The position numbers were made by a program, and so were the translations under genes. 64,000 nt of DNA from an uncultured Clostridia bacterium (GTDB lineage Bacteria > Bacillota > Clostridia > Christensenellales > UBA1242), in contig CALWTK010000002.1 of NCBI GenBank assembly GCA_944384465.1, positions 28,257 through 92,256 of the forward strand. Direction: 5' to 3'. Below are positions 2,740 to 34,536 of this stretch, piece after piece. Below the pieces are notes generated by a model. It saw only the letters and a program-made list of their open reading frames with translations. It made no database searches and was not told the origin of the DNA. How positions within the stretch are numbered: the stretch's first letter is position 1; each line of letters starts with the position of its first letter.

Positions 2740-3924
2740 ATGAAAGTTTTAGTTATTAATTCAGGGAGCAGTAGTTTAAAAGCACAGTTGATGGAGACTG
2801 ACAATGGCAAAGTGCTTGCAAAAGCTTATTGTCAACGCATAGGACTAGACAAAGCGTTTATGGATTTCAAAACTGATGAAAAACGTGTCATCAATGCGGA
2901 CATGCCTACGCACAAGGAAGCATTCCAAGTTTTTTTGAACGCCTTGACGGATAAAAAAATTGGCGTTATATCCGACTTAAGTGAGATAAAAGCGATAGGG
3001 CACAGATTAGTAAATTTTGGCGAAAAATACAACAAATCTATTGTAGTCACAAAAGAGATCTACGAAGATTTGAAAAACTATATCCATTTTGCTCCATTAC
3101 ACAACCCTCCAGCAATGTTGGGTATTCAAGTTTGTATGGAATTGATGCCTGGGGTTAAAAATGTTGCCGTTTTTGACACAGCATTTCATTCAACCATGCC
3201 TGAAAAGGCATACATCTATGCAATTCCATACGAGTTCTATACTGAAAACAAAATTCGTAGATATGGTGCACACGGCACTAGCCACAGATATATCGCTAGA
3301 AAATGTGCAGAATTATTTGGCGATCTTAAGGGGAAGAAGATCATTTCATGCCATTTAGGAAGCGGTAGCAGTATATGTGCTATCAAAGACGGGAAATGTG
3401 TCGATACATCTATGGGCTATACGCCACTCGCTGGTGTAGTGATGGGGACTCGTTCGGGCGACCTCGATCCAGCTGTTGTGAAAGAAATAATGGATGTAAA
3501 GGGTATCAGCGTCGATGATACTATCAACTTGCTGAACAAGCAGAGTGGACTTATCGGACTTACCGGCGGATTGAGCGACATGCGTGATATTGACGCCAAT
3601 TTAGACAAACCTAGAATAAAACTGGCATTTGATGTGATGGTGTATTCTATCAAAAAATATATTGGAGCATACGCTGCTGCGATGAACGGAGTGGACTATA
3701 TCATCTTCACTGCTGGGGTTGGTGAGAATGACCATTTAGTTAGAGAAGCAGTTTGTGAAGGGTTGGATTATCTTGGCGTTGATTTTGACAAAAATGTCAA
3801 TGAGTCCGCCCCTAGAGGAACAGTACAGGAATTCACGAAGAAAGGCAGCAAGGTAAAAGTATACCGTATTCCTACTGATGAAGAATATATGATAGCGCTT
3901 GACACTGCAGAATTAGCAAAATAA
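2740..3924 (+). CDS. ackA: acetate kinase
   Basis: Starts MKVLVINSGSSSLK; also has GHRLV, AFDTAFH and RYGAHGTSH motifs. RBS AAGGAGAG. Confidence 0.95.
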   Translation: MKVLVINSGSSSLKAQLMETDNGKVLAKAYCQRIGLDKAFMDFKTDEKRVINADMPTHKEAFQVFLNALTDKKIGVISDLSEIKAIGHRLVNFGEKYNKSIVVTKEIYEDLKNYIHFAPLHNPPAMLGIQVCMELMPGVKNVAVFDTAFHSTMPEKAYIYAIPYEFYTENKIRRYGAHGTSHRYIARKCAELFGDLKGKKIISCHLGSGSSICAIKDGKCVDTSMGYTPLAGVVMGTRSGDLDPAVVKEIMDVKGISVDDTINLLNKQSGLIGLTGGLSDMRDIDANLDKPRIKLAFDVMVYSIKKYIGAYAAAMNGVDYIIFTAGVGENDHLVREAVCEGLDYLGVDFDKNVNESAPRGTVQEFTKKGSKVKVYRIPTDEEYMIALDTAELAK

Positions 3925-3949
3925 AAAAGGCTTACTAAAGCCCTTTTTT
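3923..3949. terminator. bidirectional intrinsic terminator between convergent ackA and the 231-aa gene
   Basis: AAAAAAGGCTT-acta-AAGCCCTTTTTT: a short GC core stem flanked by an A-run and a T-run. Confidence 0.5.
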
Positions 3950-4643
3950 AATTTGATGTCAGTGTATTTGATTGAAAATATTTTTTGCTTAGATATAAAT
4001 AGTGCGTCTTGACTTCTTTTATTGAGTCATATATTTCGCTCAAAATATAGTCACGACTTTTCGTAGATAGCACATTTTTATAAACTGAAATGAGCACACT
4101 ATATGAATACAATATATCATCTAATTTTTTGTTCAGATTCAATATTTCTTTGAAAACTTCATTTGATGTTATTTCGTCATATTTTGCCATTTGTTCGTAA
4201 ATTAAGCCTGCATTTTTCTTTATGTTAGACAGATTTTCAATCAAAAAATTGTAGTTGTTTTGAATAATATTATCTTGATTGCTATTTAGGTCAATTATAG
4301 CGTTCAACATAGCTGCTTTGGCAGTATAAGCTTCTGATTCAGTCTCTAAATTGACAAAATTTTCGTGTATTTTATATATTTTGTTACTTTTATGACCCTT
4401 TTTGATCAACTTTAACACATCAGCGCTCGTCTTGATGTCTTGAGACACGTCTTTAAAGGATGACAATTTCTTTTGTAAACTCTCAGATAATTTATCTAAA
4501 AAAAATTTGTCTTCAGATAATTTTTCATTGATTGAGTCGACTTCACAAAATAGTTTTTTTGTAAAAGCTTCGTTTGATAAATCTAAAAATTTTATATTTT
4601 TAGTTAGTTTTCCTTTCAAATTTTCATCTATAACAATATCCAT
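3948..4643 (-). CDS. hypothetical protein, 231 aa, predicted all-helical, K/N/S-rich
   Basis: Clean ORF with RBS AAGAAGGTG and an upstream TTGACA-17-TAATCT on the minus strand. I recognise no family motif. Confidence 0.55.
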   Translation of the reverse strand: MDIVIDENLKGKLTKNIKFLDLSNEAFTKKLFCEVDSINEKLSEDKFFLDKLSESLQKKLSSFKDVSQDIKTSADVLKLIKKGHKSNKIYKIHENFVNLETESEAYTAKAAMLNAIIDLNSNQDNIIQNNYNFLIENLSNIKKNAGLIYEQMAKYDEITSNEVFKEILNLNKKLDDILYSYSVLISVYKNVLSTKSRDYILSEIYDSIKEVKTHYLYLSKKYFQSNTLTSN

Positions 4644-4752: not shown

Positions 4753-4809
4753 AAAACCATATTTTGTCGAGTGCTCGAATGAGTACGAATATTTTATGGA
4801 GGTAAATAT

Positions 4810-5001
4810 ATGGCTGTTCCAAAGGGAAAAGTGTCAAAGAGCAGACGAGATAAACGTCGTGCCAATTGGAAAGCAACAGTTCCTACATTAGTTGAATGTC
4901 CACATTGTCATGAAAAGAAAGTGGCTCACCAAGTTTGTAAAAATTGCGGATATTATGATGGAGAACAAGTTGTTAATCTTGACAAAAAAGAAGCAAAATA
5001 A
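4810..5001 (+). CDS. rpmF: 50S ribosomal protein L32 (zinc-ribbon form)
   Basis: Starts MAVPKGKVSKSRRDKRRA; CPHC..CKNC zinc ribbon. Confidence 0.95.
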   Translation: MAVPKGKVSKSRRDKRRANWKATVPTLVECPHCHEKKVAHQVCKNCGYYDGEQVVNLDKKEAK

Positions 5002-25833: not shown

Positions 25834-26154
25834 ATGGACATAAAAAGACGGGTTGAAATTGCTGTTTTGGTCAAATATTATGGTGCAATATTGACTGAGA
25901 AACAGCGTGAAATAATAAATATGTATGTAGACAACAATTTGTCGTTGAAAGAAGTGAGTGACGAGCTTAATATTACTAGGCAGGCAGTGAAGGATGCTTT
26001 GGATAACGCAATTGAGACTCTAGAAAATACCGAAAATAAATTGCATTTTATTGCTCGGGATGATAAAATAAAAAAATTATTAGAAAACAAACTTTCTAAT
26101 CAAATTGATATGAGTACAAGATTGGAGATCTTGTCTATACTGGAGGGAGAATAA
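25834..26154 (+). CDS. ylxM: YlxM/UPF0122 HTH protein of the SRP operon
   Basis: YYGAILTEKQREIINMYVDNNLSLKEVSDELNITRQAV; lies immediately upstream of ffh. Confidence 0.85.
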   Translation: MDIKRRVEIAVLVKYYGAILTEKQREIINMYVDNNLSLKEVSDELNITRQAVKDALDNAIETLENTENKLHFIARDDKIKKLLENKLSNQIDMSTRLEILSILEGE

Positions 26155-27500
26155 TGGCACTATTTTCAAGTTTGAGCGAAAGATTAAATCATATATTTAG
26201 CAAGATGACAAAACACGGAAAACTGACCGCTTTGGAGATAAAAGAAGCTATGCGTGAAATTAGAGTGGCACTGCTGGAAGCGGATGTCAATTTCACGGTA
26301 GCGAAAAATTTTATAACAAAGGTCAGTGAATTGGCGGTCGGCGAAGAAATCCTGAAAAGTTTGACCCCGACTCAGCAAGTGATAAAAATCGTACGTGACA
26401 ATCTGATTGAACTGATGGGCGGAGAAAATCAAAAACTAAATGTTTCACCAAAACCGCCTACAATCATCATGATGTGCGGATTGCAAGGTAGTGGTAAGAC
26501 GACTCTGTGCGGAAAATTGGCTCTGAAGTTGAAAAAGGAAGGTAAAAAACCACTTTTAGTCGCGTGTGACATTTATCGTCCAGCAGCGATCGATCAACTA
26601 AAAGTCCTAGGGAAATCAATTCAAATTGATGTCTTCGAACGCGGGACACAAAACCCAGTCAAGACCTGCAAAGAAGCTATAACGTATGCAGAGAAATTCG
26701 CACTAGATACAGTCATCATTGATACAGCAGGGCGCTTGCAGATAGACGAAAAATTGATGGACGAATTAAAGGAAATCAAAAAAGCAATCAACCCGACCGA
26801 AATCTTGCTCGTAATTGACGCCATGATAGGGCAAGAAGCGGTGGCAGTCTCAAAAGCATTCAATGACGCGTTGGACGTTACTGGCGTTGTGCTGACAAAG
26901 ATTGATGGCGACACACGTGGTGGTGCTGCTCTTTCAATCCGCTCAGTTATAGGTAAACCAATCAAATTCGTGGGCGTAGGCGAGAAATTGACCGACCTAG
27001 AACCTTTCTTTCCAGATAGAATGGCGTCCAGAATTTTGGGTATGGGCGATGTGCTGACTTTGATTGACAAAGCGCAAGAAGCAGTGGACGAACAGACAGC
27101 GAAGGAACTGGAAAGGAAATTCAAAGAAAACAGTTTTGATCTAAACGACTATATTGAACAGGTTAATTCGCTGAAAAAAATGGGCGGACTAAAATCAGTC
27201 CTTTCAATGATGCCTGGACTGGGCGGAAAATTGAAACAGATTGAAGACCAAATTGACGAAAAAGCACTAGAAAGGAACAAAGCTATCATCCAATCTATGA
27301 CGGCAAAAGAGAGGGCTAACCCTGACATCATCAATGGTAGCAGACGCCAAAGGATAGCAAAGGGCGCAGGCGTACAAGTGAGCGACGTCAATCAACTTAT
27401 CAAACAATTCAACCAATCAAAAGAAATGATGCGTATGATGAAGAATCCAAAAGCTTATGGCGGTAAAATGGCAATGATAAGAAAACTTATGGGCAATTAA
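26154..27500 (+). CDS. ffh: signal recognition particle protein Ffh (SRP54)
   Basis: GLQGSGKTT, DTAGRLQ and TKIDGDTRGG motifs, followed by a Met-rich M domain. Confidence 0.97.
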   Translation: MALFSSLSERLNHIFSKMTKHGKLTALEIKEAMREIRVALLEADVNFTVAKNFITKVSELAVGEEILKSLTPTQQVIKIVRDNLIELMGGENQKLNVSPKPPTIIMMCGLQGSGKTTLCGKLALKLKKEGKKPLLVACDIYRPAAIDQLKVLGKSIQIDVFERGTQNPVKTCKEAITYAEKFALDTVIIDTAGRLQIDEKLMDELKEIKKAINPTEILLVIDAMIGQEAVAVSKAFNDALDVTGVVLTKIDGDTRGGAALSIRSVIGKPIKFVGVGEKLTDLEPFFPDRMASRILGMGDVLTLIDKAQEAVDEQTAKELERKFKENSFDLNDYIEQVNSLKKMGGLKSVLSMMPGLGGKLKQIEDQIDEKALERNKAIIQSMTAKERANPDIINGSRRQRIAKGAGVQVSDVNQLIKQFNQSKEMMRMMKNPKAYGGKMAMIRKLMGN

Positions 27501-27514
27501 TAAGCTTTTGGATT

Positions 27515-27529
27515 ATGAAGAATACAGCT
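27515..27529 (+). repeat. short degenerate copy of the ffh tail start (ATGAAGAATacAGCT)
   Basis: Compare ATGAAGAATCCAAAAGCT at 27438 in ffh. Confidence 0.35.
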
Positions 27530-27561
27530 CGTCCAAAAATCTTATTTTTGGACTTGAACGG

Positions 27562-27633
27562 ATGAAAAACCCTAAAGGCAAAGGCGAAAAATTTAAGATG
27601 ATGAAGAACTTGTTGAATGGCGGAGGTTTTTAA
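27562..27633 (+). pseudogene. relic of an alternative ffh 3' end
   Basis: In-frame 23-codon relic, MKNPKGKGEKFKMMKNLLNGGGF*. It begins with the same MKNPK as the ffh tail and has no RBS. Confidence 0.5.
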
Positions 27634-27678
27634 TCTTAAATTTTCAAACGTTGATTTAGGGGAAAGGTGTCATCATTA

Positions 27679-27704
27679 CATATGGCAAATAATTTTGCCA
27701 TATG
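27679..27704. repeat. perfect palindrome with 11-bp arms
   Basis: CATATGGCAAA-taat-TTTGCCATATG, located immediately 5' of the second ffh-tail copy. Confidence 0.8.
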
Positions 27705-27708
27705 CGAG

Positions 27709-27771
27709 ATGAAGAATCCAAAAGCCTATGGTGGTAAAATGGCTATTATACGTAAATTAATGGGGCAATAA
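27709..27771 (+). pseudogene. displaced copy of the last 21 codons of ffh
   Basis: MKNPKAYGGKMAIIRKLMGQ* versus the native MKNPKAYGGKMAMIRKLMGN* (27438..27500). By my hand alignment 52/63 nt are identical. Confidence 0.8.
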
Positions 27772-27782
27772 ATTGCAAAAAG

Positions 27783-27811
27783 TTATAGTAAATTTTACTA
27801 TAATTTTTTTT
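27783..27811 (+). terminator. intrinsic terminator after the displaced ffh tail
   Basis: TTATAGTA-aattt-TACTATAA followed by TTTTTTTT. The stem is AT-rich and weak. Confidence 0.45.
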
Positions 27812-27891
27812 AATAAAAATTCTTATTCCTGTTTAGGAATATTCAAGACAGATCCTTTTTATTGTTGTAGAATATAAAAAGGAGAATGTTT

Positions 27892-28121
27892 ATGAGGAAT
27901 AGAATTAAAATTGAAATGGTATATGATTATATGAAGAAGAACAATCTATCAAAAACGAAGTTCTGCAAGATTGCAATATCAGTCCTATAATCTTCAAAAA
28001 AATAGAGATGTTCAATCTCACTGGCGGAAAAATACCAAAAGGTTACAATTTTAATATTGCGACGTTATTTAAGATTGCAAAATTCATAGGCGTTAAGTTA
28101 TATGAATTGTTTGAAAATTAA
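27892..28121 (+). pseudogene. XRE-family HTH regulator, frameshifted
   Basis: Frame 1 reads MRNRIKIEMVYDYMKKNNLSKTKFCKIAISVL*. Shifting one base restores NISPIIFKKIEMFNLTGGKIPKGYNFNIATLFKIAKFIGVKLYELFEN*. The 230-nt span is not a multiple of 3. RBS AAGGAG is present. Confidence 0.7.
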
Positions 28122-28273
28122 TTTGCATATTATATATTCTTAAGAGATGAAAGGGGGTGTGAAAAACTAAATATTACTATGCTTTTTATAAATAATTGCT
28201 AAATATGTACAGGAATATATAAATGATTACACGAAAAATAAATATACAATATATTGTGTAAATAAATATAAAA

Positions 28274-28298
28274 AACCACAAGTCATATGCTTGTGGTT
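28274..28298 (-). terminator. intrinsic terminator of the 406-aa gene
   Basis: AACCACAAG-tcatatg-CTTGTGGTT. On the minus strand it is followed by a T-run (the A-run at 28269..28275 on the plus strand). Confidence 0.65.
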
Positions 28299-28356
28299 CG
28301 ATTTTCCAGATTAATCATATCACAAAATTTGATATTGTCAATACCTATTTAAAAAT

Positions 28357-29577
28357 TTATGCTTGTTCTTGAAGATTTCTTAAATTCATATATTTATTTT
28401 GTTCCAAGTTTGATGTTACCATTTGAACAATCTGTCCAAATTCTTCATAATTAGTTGGTTGGATACCAGTCTTTTTGATATAATCAACACAATAATTAAT
28501 TGCGTTAGTCGACTGCTCAGTGAAGCAGTTGCTATATTGATTAAGGATATTGTCAGGGATATTACCTTGAAGTGAGGCAATATTTTTTGCTTGTTTATCG
28601 TTGTTGACCAAAACGTCTTGCATAGTTTGATAGATCAATTTTGATAGAGATTGGTTCAACTCTTGAGAGTTGTTTGACATATTTGCTAGAGCGATTTGAG
28701 TATTTTGATTTGAATTACTTTTCGCTACAAATTCGTTACTGGCAGTTTGACCTTGACTAGATAAATTTGACAGCATGATAGGTGCTGTGGTTTCCAATTC
28801 TTTGAATGATGTAGTCGAACTAATGAATGATGTGAATATGTTGTGTTGTTTTATGAATTCCTCTAGTTCAGGGCTATAATTGGATAGGGCAGTCGTATCA
28901 ACTATGTTTATTTGTTGTTCTATTTGATCAAGGGAGGATCCTATTTCATCGGCAATGTTTTGAGGAATGTCGCCTTGCTGGGTATAGGTAGAAGCCTCCA
29001 GTGGAAACTTTTGCATCTCTTGCTCATAAGCATTGAGAAGAGATTTTATTGCATTTTGTAGTTTTGAAAAATCAGGGTCGTTATTGTTTAAAATATCCAA
29101 ATTTTTCAATCTAGCCAGATTTTTTGTCGCAACTCTTTCGTCCGCTGAGCCATTTTGATATTTCTCTTCTATCAAAACGATTTTATCTATTATATCAGCA
29201 TATTGCTTAGTTAGTTCACAATGTTGAATGTCCGCTTTCATAGTCTGTAATGATTTTTCGAGGTTTGATAAGACGGTTTGTGGGTTTTCTGTTTTATTAA
29301 ATTCGGTATATTCATTTACAAATATGTTTGTTCCTTCACATACATTTTGAATATTGTGAAACAGTTGAGATGTTTGATCTATGACATCTTGAGGGAATAC
29401 GTCAGGTTGATTGATATATCTTAGCATGTTGTTTGCATATTCATACAATCTAACATTTCTAGTTTTCATAACCTCAATTTCTTCTGTATAATCGGGTTGG
29501 GAGGATAGTGTGGCTTTCCTTTCTTCAATTTGAGTCAAAAGTTGGTCTATCTTTTGAGATAATTCGTTATAAGTCAT
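28357..29577 (-). CDS. hypothetical protein, 406 aa, Q/N/S-rich, helical, with three internal repeats
   Basis: Clean ORF with RBS AGGAGA. A repeated motif occurs at aa 58 (PDVFPQDVID), aa 201 (QGDIPQNIAD) and aa 337 (QGNIPDNILN). There is no TM helix or signal peptide, and I recognise no family motif. Confidence 0.6.
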   Translation of the reverse strand: MTYNELSQKIDQLLTQIEERKATLSSQPDYTEEIEVMKTRNVRLYEYANNMLRYINQPDVFPQDVIDQTSQLFHNIQNVCEGTNIFVNEYTEFNKTENPQTVLSNLEKSLQTMKADIQHCELTKQYADIIDKIVLIEEKYQNGSADERVATKNLARLKNLDILNNNDPDFSKLQNAIKSLLNAYEQEMQKFPLEASTYTQQGDIPQNIADEIGSSLDQIEQQINIVDTTALSNYSPELEEFIKQHNIFTSFISSTTSFKELETTAPIMLSNLSSQGQTASNEFVAKSNSNQNTQIALANMSNNSQELNQSLSKLIYQTMQDVLVNNDKQAKNIASLQGNIPDNILNQYSNCFTEQSTNAINYCVDYIKKTGIQPTNYEEFGQIVQMVTSNLEQNKYMNLRNLQEQA

Positions 29578-29595
29578 CTTTTTCTCCTATATTTT

Positions 29596-29624
29596 ATTAT
29601 AACATATCAAATCTATATTGTCAA
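29596..29624 (-). promoter_or_regulatory. near-consensus sigma-A promoter of the 406-aa gene
   Basis: The minus strand reads TTGACA-17 nt-TATAAT with a TGT extension (complement of 29619..29624 and 29596..29601). Confidence 0.65.
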
Positions 29625-29679
29625 AAATAATGATGTGCGATATATGGCAAATATAAACGTAAAAATTTATAAAAAACAC

Positions 29680-29708
29680 TTTACAAATATTTGTCAGTAT
29701 GATATTAT
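29680..29708 (+). promoter_or_regulatory. rpsP operon promoter
   Basis: TTTACA(29680..29685)-17 nt-TATTAT(29703..29708), TGn-extended. Confidence 0.55.
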
Positions 29709-29751
29709 GTAAAGGTAAAATACTTTACAGATGTAAATAAAAGGAGAAATT

Positions 29752-30048
29752 ATGGCTGTTAAAATTAGATTGACTCGTTTGGGAGACAAAAAATCACCTT
29801 TTTATCGTGTCGTTGTTGCTGACAGTAGAGTGGCTAGAGATGGTAAATACATCGAACAGATCGGTACTTACAATCCGCTAAAAGACCCTGCTGAAATCAA
29901 AATCAACAATGAACTCGCTCTCAAATGGTTGCGTCAAGGTGCTCAACCTACTGAAACTGCTAAAACATTGCTTCAAAAAGTCGGCGTTTTGGAAGTGAAA
30001 GGTAATTCTGTACCTAAGACAAACAACAAGAAAAAGAAAAAAGCATAG
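29752..30048 (+). CDS. rpsP: 30S ribosomal protein S16
   Basis: [26 protein letters not shown]. Confidence 0.97.
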
Positions 30049-30059
30049 GAGAGTAGTTT

Positions 30060-30290
30060 ATGCAAGAAATTTTGGAGTACATTGTCAAGAATTTGGTGTC
30101 ACATCCAGATGAGGTTGAAATCGCTAGCGAAAACCAGGGCAAAACTAAAGTCTTCAAAGTCACTGTCAATCAAAAAGATTTGGGCAGTGTCATTGGAAGG
30201 GGCGGAGTGATTGCCAACGCTATTAGGACAATAGTGAAGTCAACTGCAGACAATAAAGGAAGATTAGTAATTAAATTTGATGCAAAATAA
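30060..30290 (+). CDS. KH-domain RNA-binding protein (YlqC/UPF0109)
   Basis: LGSVIGRGGVIANAIRTIV, a GxxG KH motif; conserved position after rpsP. Confidence 0.85.
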   Translation: MQEILEYIVKNLVSHPDEVEIASENQGKTKVFKVTVNQKDLGSVIGRGGVIANAIRTIVKSTADNKGRLVIKFDAK

Positions 30291-33315: not shown

Positions 33316-34536
33316 ATGGAAAAAATTGTAGATGATGAATTGAAAAAAGCATATAAACAACTCAAATATTGGGGTATAGCGGCTAAAGAATTGAGCGATT
33401 CTAAAATAATTGAACGTGTAGAACTATTAAAAAAGGCACCTAGACACTCAGCCATCGATGAATTGTATTCGTCTAAATATATTTGGGGAGTCACAGCTGC
33501 TAACCTTAGGAATTATGACTTATCTAATCTACCTATAGATCTATTGTACCGAACAAGTTTTTCTAATAAGACAAAATGGCCATCACAAGACAAATTGCCA
33601 AAAGGGTTTCATCCTGATAAGATTATCGAACAAGCAAAGACTTTTAAAGGATTAGGTGTAGAAAAATTACATGAGCAAGGCGTGACAGGGAAGGGAGTGA
33701 CAATAGTATATATTGATAAACCTTTTGACACCCGTCATATTGAATTTGACAGTAAAAAAATTGAATATATAGTGAGGGGAGACGGAGAATTTAATTTTCA
33801 CGGGTATGCAGTAGCTGCACGTTTGGCTGGTCAAAACATGGGGATCGCCAAAGACATTAATATGATATATTATGCTTGTGGTGGTATAGGGAAATATAAT
33901 GATTATTTTACTGACTATGTTTCATATGAACTAAAAATATTGAAAGATATCATCAAAAGGGTGGAAAACAATGAGCAAATTGCCGCTATAGGAGTATCTG
34001 CTTCCATATCTTATCATATATATATGTTAAAAAATGATAGACTGAAAAAACGTTTTGAATCAACATTCAATGAATTGAAAAAGAGATTGGACGAATTAGG
34101 TGTTCCATTGATAGATAGCGAAACTTTTTGGGATAAAGGTTTTTCATATTGCTTTAAAATTGATCCAAAATTGCCAAATGACTATGTTGACAACTATTTT
34201 GATAGATTTTCTGCTATGAGCAATGAGGAAAAGATGTCTGTAATAGATGCCGATAAATGCATACCTCTAGTTTACACATTAGATAGTTATAAATATGAAA
34301 ATTTGATAGGGAGTGCCAGTTGGAGTATTCCACAGGTTGTGGGGCTATATGCTTTGGCAAAGCAAATTGATAAAGATCTAACCTTTGATGAATTCGTAGA
34401 GATAACAAGAAAAACATTGGATCCAGCCAACATACATGGAGTCAGATTGATCAATGCTCCAAATTTGATCAAAGAAGTACAACATCAAAAAGAAGTGAAA
34501 GCAGAATCAACATTAACTATAAGTCCAGAAAATTAA
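33316..34536 (+). CDS. subtilase (S8)-like serine peptidase, no signal peptide, divergent
   Basis: Triad-like motifs in the order and spacing of subtilisins: [10 protein letters not shown]134KPF, FH162[10 protein letters not shown] and GSAS335[13 protein letters not shown] (compare GTSMAxPhVAG). The N-terminus is hydrophilic. Confidence 0.6.

Follow-up and report, generated by a model that had tools for sequence, protein, structure and literature searches.

What does a single minus-strand gene do between ffh and rpsP, in a region where most genes are read from the plus strand, and how did it come to be there? The question is raised by a stretch of 64,000 nucleotides (nt) from an uncultured Clostridia bacterium of the lineage UBA1242 (Christensenellales; GenBank assembly GCA_944384465.1, contig CALWTK010000002.1, positions 28,257 to 92,256 of the forward strand), the whole of which is referred to here as the window. 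The gene, termed X, is an open reading frame (ORF) for an orphan protein of 406 amino acids (aa), and an initial annotation had presented it as a self-contained unit for a helical protein with three repeats, seated on the apparent remnant of an integrated element. X would be best explained as an independently transcribed accessory orphan cassette that occupies the slot between ffh and rpsP in a few species of Onthoplasma/UBA1242 and that is gained, lost, and re-assorted by homologous recombination through conserved flanks rather than by its own element. It is probable that X is an accessory cassette in a recombination slot; the fuller explanation, in which the exchanged cassette also encodes a helical binding protein, is the best overall and stands at about an even balance.

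Gene X in a variable slot between ffh and rpsP

X is a genuine protein-coding gene and not a chance ORF, as indicated by purifying selection, a kept reading frame, and expression signals. The ratio of nonsynonymous to synonymous substitution rates (dN/dS) is 0.17-0.23 in all comparisons with four orthologues and 0.01-0.07 in neighbouring genes, that is, X evolves much faster than its neighbours yet under net purifying selection, and both its frame and its full length are maintained down to 26% identity. The sigma-70-type promoter is the top-scoring site in a 2.8-kb promoter scan (positions 27300-30100), and its 12/12 match is retained, together with TAGGAG upstream, in the upstream alignment with a species whose protein is 53% identical. 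The terminator is conserved in the locus comparison and is probably bidirectional, since it is the sole hairpin between the convergent X and ffh in L008 (compared loci are given L numbers). Moreover, the effective number of codons (Nc), a measure of codon bias, is 44 in X and 42.5 in rpsP, against a typical value of ~51 in the window. Judged by these signals, X is very probably a real, expressed orphan gene. It is also one of about three minus-strand ORFs among ~60 in the window, over the entire length of which the guanine-cytosine (GC) skew is +0.12 to +0.18; the plus strand is therefore the leading strand and gene X is read head-on to replication. The initial description of a rare minus-strand gene in a plus-strand block, forming a unit with a near-consensus promoter, an AGGAGA ribosome-binding site, and its own terminator, is thus borne out (Table 1).

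The survey of homologous neighbourhoods that the annotation had proposed gave a uniform picture: all X copies on contigs reaching both flanks lie between ffh and rpsP, convergent with ffh and divergent from rpsP. This arrangement is found in L001-L004, L006, L008, and L011-L015, and the short contig of L005 covers the ffh side only. In four other loci the gap between ffh and rpsP is empty (L016, 189 bp; L017, 397 bp; L018, 464 bp; L021, 270 bp), and no remnant of X was detected in the three empty loci tested (L016-L018). When RimM, Ffh, RpsP, and KhpA are compared, lineages lacking X are as close to the window as those carrying it. Since the gap is empty, filled by X, or filled by other cargo in comparably related lineages, the ffh-rpsP interval is a variable slot. 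The junction is usually seen as a fixed operon boundary in Firmicutes and appears to serve as an accessory-gene slot in this lineage. X also evolves fast, being 26% identical in one lineage in which Ffh is 91%, RpsP 85%, KhpA 71%, and RimM 58% identical. As a separate observation, the slot of L020, another UBA1242 lineage, contains (at 3261-4187) a 108-aa orphan and a 169-aa histidine-phosphatase gene (His_Phos_1), both on the opposite strand and unrelated to X; a 326-aa gene of L018 that has no Pfam match was also compared with X and found to be unrelated.

Cassette alleles are exchanged by recombination among strains, and their history does not track that of the genome background. In the comparison of the window with L011, X has a nucleotide identity of 93-99% and a synonymous divergence (dS) of 0.11, whereas the flanking genes are 81-96% identical (dS 0.34-0.91). 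L011 and L003, in turn, share 98-100% identity in the flank on the rpsP side but 82-96% in X (dS 0.28). The alleles are block mosaics, and the four-gamete test fails for 470 of the 1770 pairs of informative columns. This exchange presumably proceeds by recombination through the highly conserved flanks, and the presence of dprA near the locus fits competence for DNA uptake.

Table 1. Features of the ffh-rpsP interval (window coordinates)
Feature	Position	Strand	Basis
ffh 3' tail, three versions	27437-27500 (real), 27561-27633, 27708-27771	+	Sequence comparison
Conserved 23-nt box with covarying hairpin	27659-27708	+	Lineage comparison
Broken Xre-like helix-turn-helix (HTH) gene, two ORF fragments, between ffh and X terminator	27886..28121	+	ORF fragments
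Conserved 107-nt block directly 3' of X stop codon	28244..28350	-	Alignment of window and L008
Gene X intrinsic terminator, 10-bp hairpin followed by T-run	28273..28299	-	Hairpin scan
Second promoter-like site, in 107-nt block, TTGACA-16-TATGAT with TG	28341..28314	-	Near-consensus
Gene X coding sequence, 406-aa orphan protein	28357..29577	-	ORF, ATG start
Gene X ribosome-binding site, AGGAGA, 5 nt upstream of ATG	29583..29588	-	Read directly
Gene X promoter, sigma-70 type, TTGACA, 17 nt, TG-n-TATAAT	29596..29624	-	12/12 match, extended -10
rpsP promoter, divergent, TTTACA-17-TATTAT with TG; right edge of variable slot	29680..29708	+	Promoter scan

Protein X, its family, and its predicted fold

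The family of X is very small and confined to one group of hosts. Eight clusters were found among 5.8 billion proteins, at 86-95% and 53% identity, and three further clusters, one of them a 109-aa fragment, among 1.84 billion representatives at ~26% identity. X occurs in three species of a genome-contig collection described as covering 185,579 species with a single genome per species (GTDB release 232); a metagenome scan added one partial copy, and a profile search with the alignment of diverged members returned no new ones. All hosts belong to Onthoplasma/UBA1242, and those named are Candidatus Onthoplasma faecigallinarum, Ca. O. faecipullorum, and 'uncultured Christensenella sp.'. The members of Onthoplasma (family UBA1242, Christensenellales) live in the gut, have genomes of ~0.8-0.9 Mb, lack flagella, and carry sporulation genes (PMC12306168).

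The composition of protein X, which is soluble and acidic, is distinctive. Its contents of Q (10.3%, the next highest ORF having 5.0%) and N (11.6%) are the highest among the ~60 ORFs of the window, K amounts to 5.7%, Trp is lacking, the isoelectric point is 4.5, and the net charge is -23. No membrane segment was found, the maximum Kyte-Doolittle average over 19 residues being 0.43, so that the earlier characterization of the protein as Q/N-rich and devoid of a transmembrane helix stands. The most conserved part spans residues ~121-200 (LIEEKYQ...KNLARLKNLDIL...AYEQEMQKFP).

Library searches were run on protein X of the window and on each diverged member, and nothing above threshold was obtained from Pfam, PHROGs, NCBIfam, or PADLOC; PDB sequences, searched by phmmer and by profile, gave no match either. 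The best Pfam match of X is DUF3150 (PF11348), a family whose own function is not known, with 16.7 bits against a cut-off of 24.9 and E = 0.0049 over aa 204-257 (54 residues); it spans only a fifth of the model and lies below the membership threshold, and the best value among close alleles of X (E = 5.5e-4) comes from near-identical sequences that are not independent. The best PHROGs matches (E = 0.012-0.04) are all to families of unknown function, none of the 2.9 million viral contigs of IMG/VR encodes a relative of X, and PADLOC-DB contains no family for X of the window, the sole match being PDC-S14 (E = 0.0061) in three near-identical alleles.

An AlphaFold2 model of X, built from a shallow family alignment, consists of helices only, with a predicted local distance difference test score (pLDDT) of 85.7 and a predicted template-modelling score (pTM) of 0.74. 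The model of a 26%-identity homologue has helices in the same order as in X, with a pLDDT of 69, a confidence too low for a fold search. Foldseek comparison of the X model with PDB and BFVD returned nothing at E <= 0.001, the best values being 0.017 (PDB) and 0.0018 (BFVD). Relatives of the cytomegalovirus IE1 core head both lists, and the top rows also include BAR/F-BAR, Pil1/Lsp1, and YaxA/AhlB, which like X are long, all-helical, multi-bundle proteins. However, the top rows (IE1, BAR, YaxA) show template-modelling (TM) scores of 0.10-0.24, root-mean-square deviations of 19-48 Å, and 9-13% identity, a generic likeness of helix to helix in which the fold is not shared. The X family is undescribed, with a fold for which no match was found in PDB or BFVD, and the initial judgement that the protein is not assignable to any family, with no confident housekeeping match, agrees with these searches. 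Two further candidates were discarded. An alpha-pore-forming toxin of the ClyA/YaxA/AhlB type does not agree with the YaxA and AhlB matches (E = 0.57 and 1.0; TM scores 0.10-0.16) or with the maximum hydropathy of 0.43. A type VII secretion substrate (WXG100/LXG) does not agree with the lack of Trp, and the Pfam lists, taken to E <= 10 and to E <= 1, include neither WXG100 nor LXG; an LQG at residues 335-337 of X is not retained in homologues P0010 or P0011.

The three alike motifs that the initial annotation had taken for a threefold internal periodicity are present at aa 58, 201, and 337, and they could suggest a helical-repeat protein derived from triplication of a ~140-aa unit or duplication of a ~200-aa unit. 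In the predicted structure, helix lengths of 20/25/32/43 (aa 3-141) resemble those of 20/19/32/45 (aa 206-335), which gives a hint of possible two-fold symmetry. However, every sequence and profile self-comparison is at chance level, whether made between thirds, between halves, at any other offset, or on the three motifs together, and the idea of internal repeats was rejected. Smith-Waterman comparison among the thirds gives z = 1.1-1.5 over shuffles, and hhalign gives P = 0.036-0.3 for the thirds over just 18-19 columns and P = 0.11 for the two halves. The motifs at 201 and 337 form the best pair of 10-mers in X (score 33), a value equalled by 11 of 150 shuffles, and the sum for the motif triple (58) falls short of 61.4, the mean that shuffles give for their best triple. 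Moreover, in each of four diverged homologues all diagonal offsets stay within the shuffle null, and in homologues of 26% identity only N207, N339, and P341 survive among the motif residues. In the model, each motif lies at the entry from a loop into a helix (P62/H63, P205/H206, and P341/H342). What recurs in X is best read as a helix-entry motif, [DN]-[IVF]-P-x-[DN]-[IV], and not as a triplicated unit, and an origin by internal triplication or duplication is very unlikely.

Origin and role of the cassette

No catalytic or membrane feature can be seen in X, and the product of the exchanged cassette would therefore act by binding, not by catalysis: an abundant protein serving as adaptor or scaffold (or decoy). 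Because the distribution is patchy and the alleles are mosaic and horizontally exchanged, antagonism with phages, mobile elements, or a partner organism would be somewhat likelier than a core cellular role; a binding protein related to such conflicts can be proposed tentatively. Several observations weigh against this explanation. Nothing links X to phage or conflict biology: PADLOC and PHROGs give no match, and defence genes are lacking in the vicinity. The dN/dS, at 0.2 on average, gives no sign of positive selection, and a patch rich in nonsynonymous changes (codons ~181-270) is built on small counts. The low dS could be partly due to codon bias, and the mosaic of two haplotypes per segment fits ordinary interspecies recombination as well as diversifying selection. 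In addition, the quick neighbour-joining tree of four proteins is star-like, with no branching order claimed, the patchiness is accounted for equally well by a single gain with several later losses in a lineage undergoing genome reduction, and the strength of X expression was judged from sequence signals alone.

It may instead be that X is a lineage-specific housekeeping protein, structural or of scaffold type (in division, the nucleoid, or sporulation), ancestral at the locus, inherited vertically and lost in some lineages, its divergence reflecting weak constraint on helical bundles. The position and orientation of X, identical in lineages down to 26% identity, favour such a role, as do the consensus vegetative promoter, the codon bias like that of rpsP, the dN/dS of 0.2, the GC content that is not foreign, the conserved core at residues 121-200, and the retention of X in genomes of less than 1 Mb. 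A gene kept at precisely this locus in distant relatives had been named beforehand as an argument against mobile origin, and this is found in part, X standing in the same place at 53% and at 26% identity. Nevertheless, four lineages of comparable relatedness lack X (the three that were tested retain no remnant), a fifth has other cargo in its place, the alleles depart from the genome background in both directions, and X has no similarity to a known structural or scaffold family. A housekeeping role is thus a possibility to be taken seriously, though not the expected one. The initial annotation had pointed elsewhere, to a remnant of an integrated element, and X might accordingly be read as cargo of a degraded prophage or integrative element inserted at the 3' end of ffh, with a role in exclusion, anti-defence, or virion structure. 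That claim is upheld as regards an insertion slot with decaying material beside the gene: the duplicated ffh tails, the 23-nt box, and the HTH fragments look like relics of insertion events, the tail copies, with mostly synonymous differences, resemble relics of attachment (att) sites, the decaying HTH gene lies between ffh and X, the ffh-to-X spacer is variable (560, 726, and 857 bp among strains), the slot of L020 holds other cargo, and X and its flanks lie on different strands. However, neither an integrase nor any other element gene is found among the ORFs of the ffh-rpsP interval, and no copy of the ffh tail lies on the rpsP side of X, all copies (27437-27771) being on the side of ffh. 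L018 has the tail-box-tail arrangement without X, whereas L008 and L005 have X without the arrangement and with spacers of only 164 and 110 bp; the arrangement is therefore independent of X. Thus, patchy presence at a fixed site and neighbouring relics, as in an integrative element, are observed, whereas flanking att sites with an integrase are not.

Phage origin, the other part of the earlier suggestion, was not corroborated, as X has no PHROG match, no homologue in the 2.9 million viral contigs, and no viral fold match. Moreover, the ffh tail was not found in viral contigs, and the GC content of X (33.3%, against 35.4% in the window) is unremarkable. Direct repeats of 12-29 nt flanking the cassette (D2, D5, and D12) are AT-rich and at chance level, and they were not used. 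Cargo of a degraded element is, consequently, an unlikely identity for X. The boldest proposal is that X founds a family, not seen before, of single-gene conflict proteins that are all-helical and non-enzymatic (acting in phage exclusion, as decoys, or against mobile elements) and are carried by an exchangeable ffh-rpsP cassette, with a fold unrelated to solved structures and a 107-nt 3' block that is a functional RNA or DNA element; as a whole it is improbable.

The exchanged accessory cassette has counterparts elsewhere. Strain-variable accessory genes located in integration or defence hotspots between core genes have been described for Escherichia coli and other pan-genomes, and in uncultured lineages such hotspots commonly hold accessory genes that are orphans. 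Like the slot of X, such hotspots have fixed conserved flanks with variable cargo or none, mosaic exchanged alleles, and an adjoining decaying regulator and att-like relics; unlike them, the slot of X is a single-gene one with no PADLOC match and no integrase or mobile gene, in a host genome of less than 1 Mb. Lactococcal abortive-infection (Abi) proteins, which serve here only as a lead, are single-gene, AT-rich, cytoplasmic proteins of ~350-400 aa with few or no homologues and a patchy distribution. They resemble X in monocistronic layout with a constitutive-looking promoter, in size, in AT-richness, and in patchiness; X, however, matches no Abi model in PADLOC or Pfam and is chromosomal, not plasmid-borne. 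Genomes of ~0.8-0.9 Mb have little room for dispensable genes, and therefore a retained, exchanged, and fast-evolving gene of 1.2 kb probably matters to the lifestyle of its host; for these uncultured gut bacteria, X probably matters through phage pressure or dependence on a partner. Otherwise, X is one more uncharacterised protein family, of modest immediate value.

Neighbouring features

The block directly 3' of X is better conserved than the gene itself between the window and L008, 91 of its 107 nt being identical (85%), against 66% in the X coding sequence and 53% in the protein. It holds the X terminator, the palindrome TACAATATATTGTA, and the second promoter-like site, which lies only ~15 nt upstream of the terminator hairpin, so that an RNA of ~40 nt is implied. 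The block is absent from lineages whose X is 26% identical.

On the ffh side, the copy of the tail at 27708-27771 is the one that differs from the real ffh tail mostly by synonymous changes. The 23-nt box, GGGGAAAG(C/G)TGTC(A/G)TCATTACAT, stands between a variant-A tail (..MMKNLLNGGGF and stop) and a variant-B tail (MKNPKAYGGKMAIIRKLMGQ and stop), and a hairpin comes next, with a stem that varies in sequence by lineage but keeps its pairing. Box and hairpin have no Rfam match and occur once in the window; the one match of the box in viral contigs, inside an unrelated coding region, was judged to be due to chance. The tail-box arrangement could represent a former att site or else a structured element of unknown kind. 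Serial ffh tails are also seen at L018 4913-5130, L006 3019-3170, and L013 ~4805-4960, and ffh ends in variant A in some strains and in a B-like copy in the window. Ffh is called as a protein of 431, 448, 450, or 451 aa in close strains (L011/L012 4778-6073, L013 4947-6302, and window 26154-27500), differences that are due to indels at the 3' end and alternative tails, the C-terminus of Ffh being polymorphic in the group. As for the Xre-like HTH gene, it is intact (63 aa) in L013 and broken differently in L004, and its pseudogenisation is therefore recent.

Further small variable slots exist in the group at trmD-ylqF and yraN-rplS. The latter harbours a second 406-aa ORF in the window (33316-34536, plus strand), where relatives carry different genes without Pfam hits (106 and 310 aa in L003, 229 aa in L016).

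At the other edge of the X slot, the -35 boxes of the divergent rpsP and X promoters are ~55 bp apart, and the rpsP promoter region is conserved also in loci without X. In this region (window 29673-29732, plus strand), CTTTACA at the -35 position is followed by an inverted TGTAAAG directly after the -10 element and by CTTTACA again ~10 nt further on. The layout is kept in all lineages examined, with or without X (for instance, L016 5310-5372, L017 5107-5168, and L018 5363-5418), and it may serve as an operator, or form a leader hairpin, for control of the rpsP operon.

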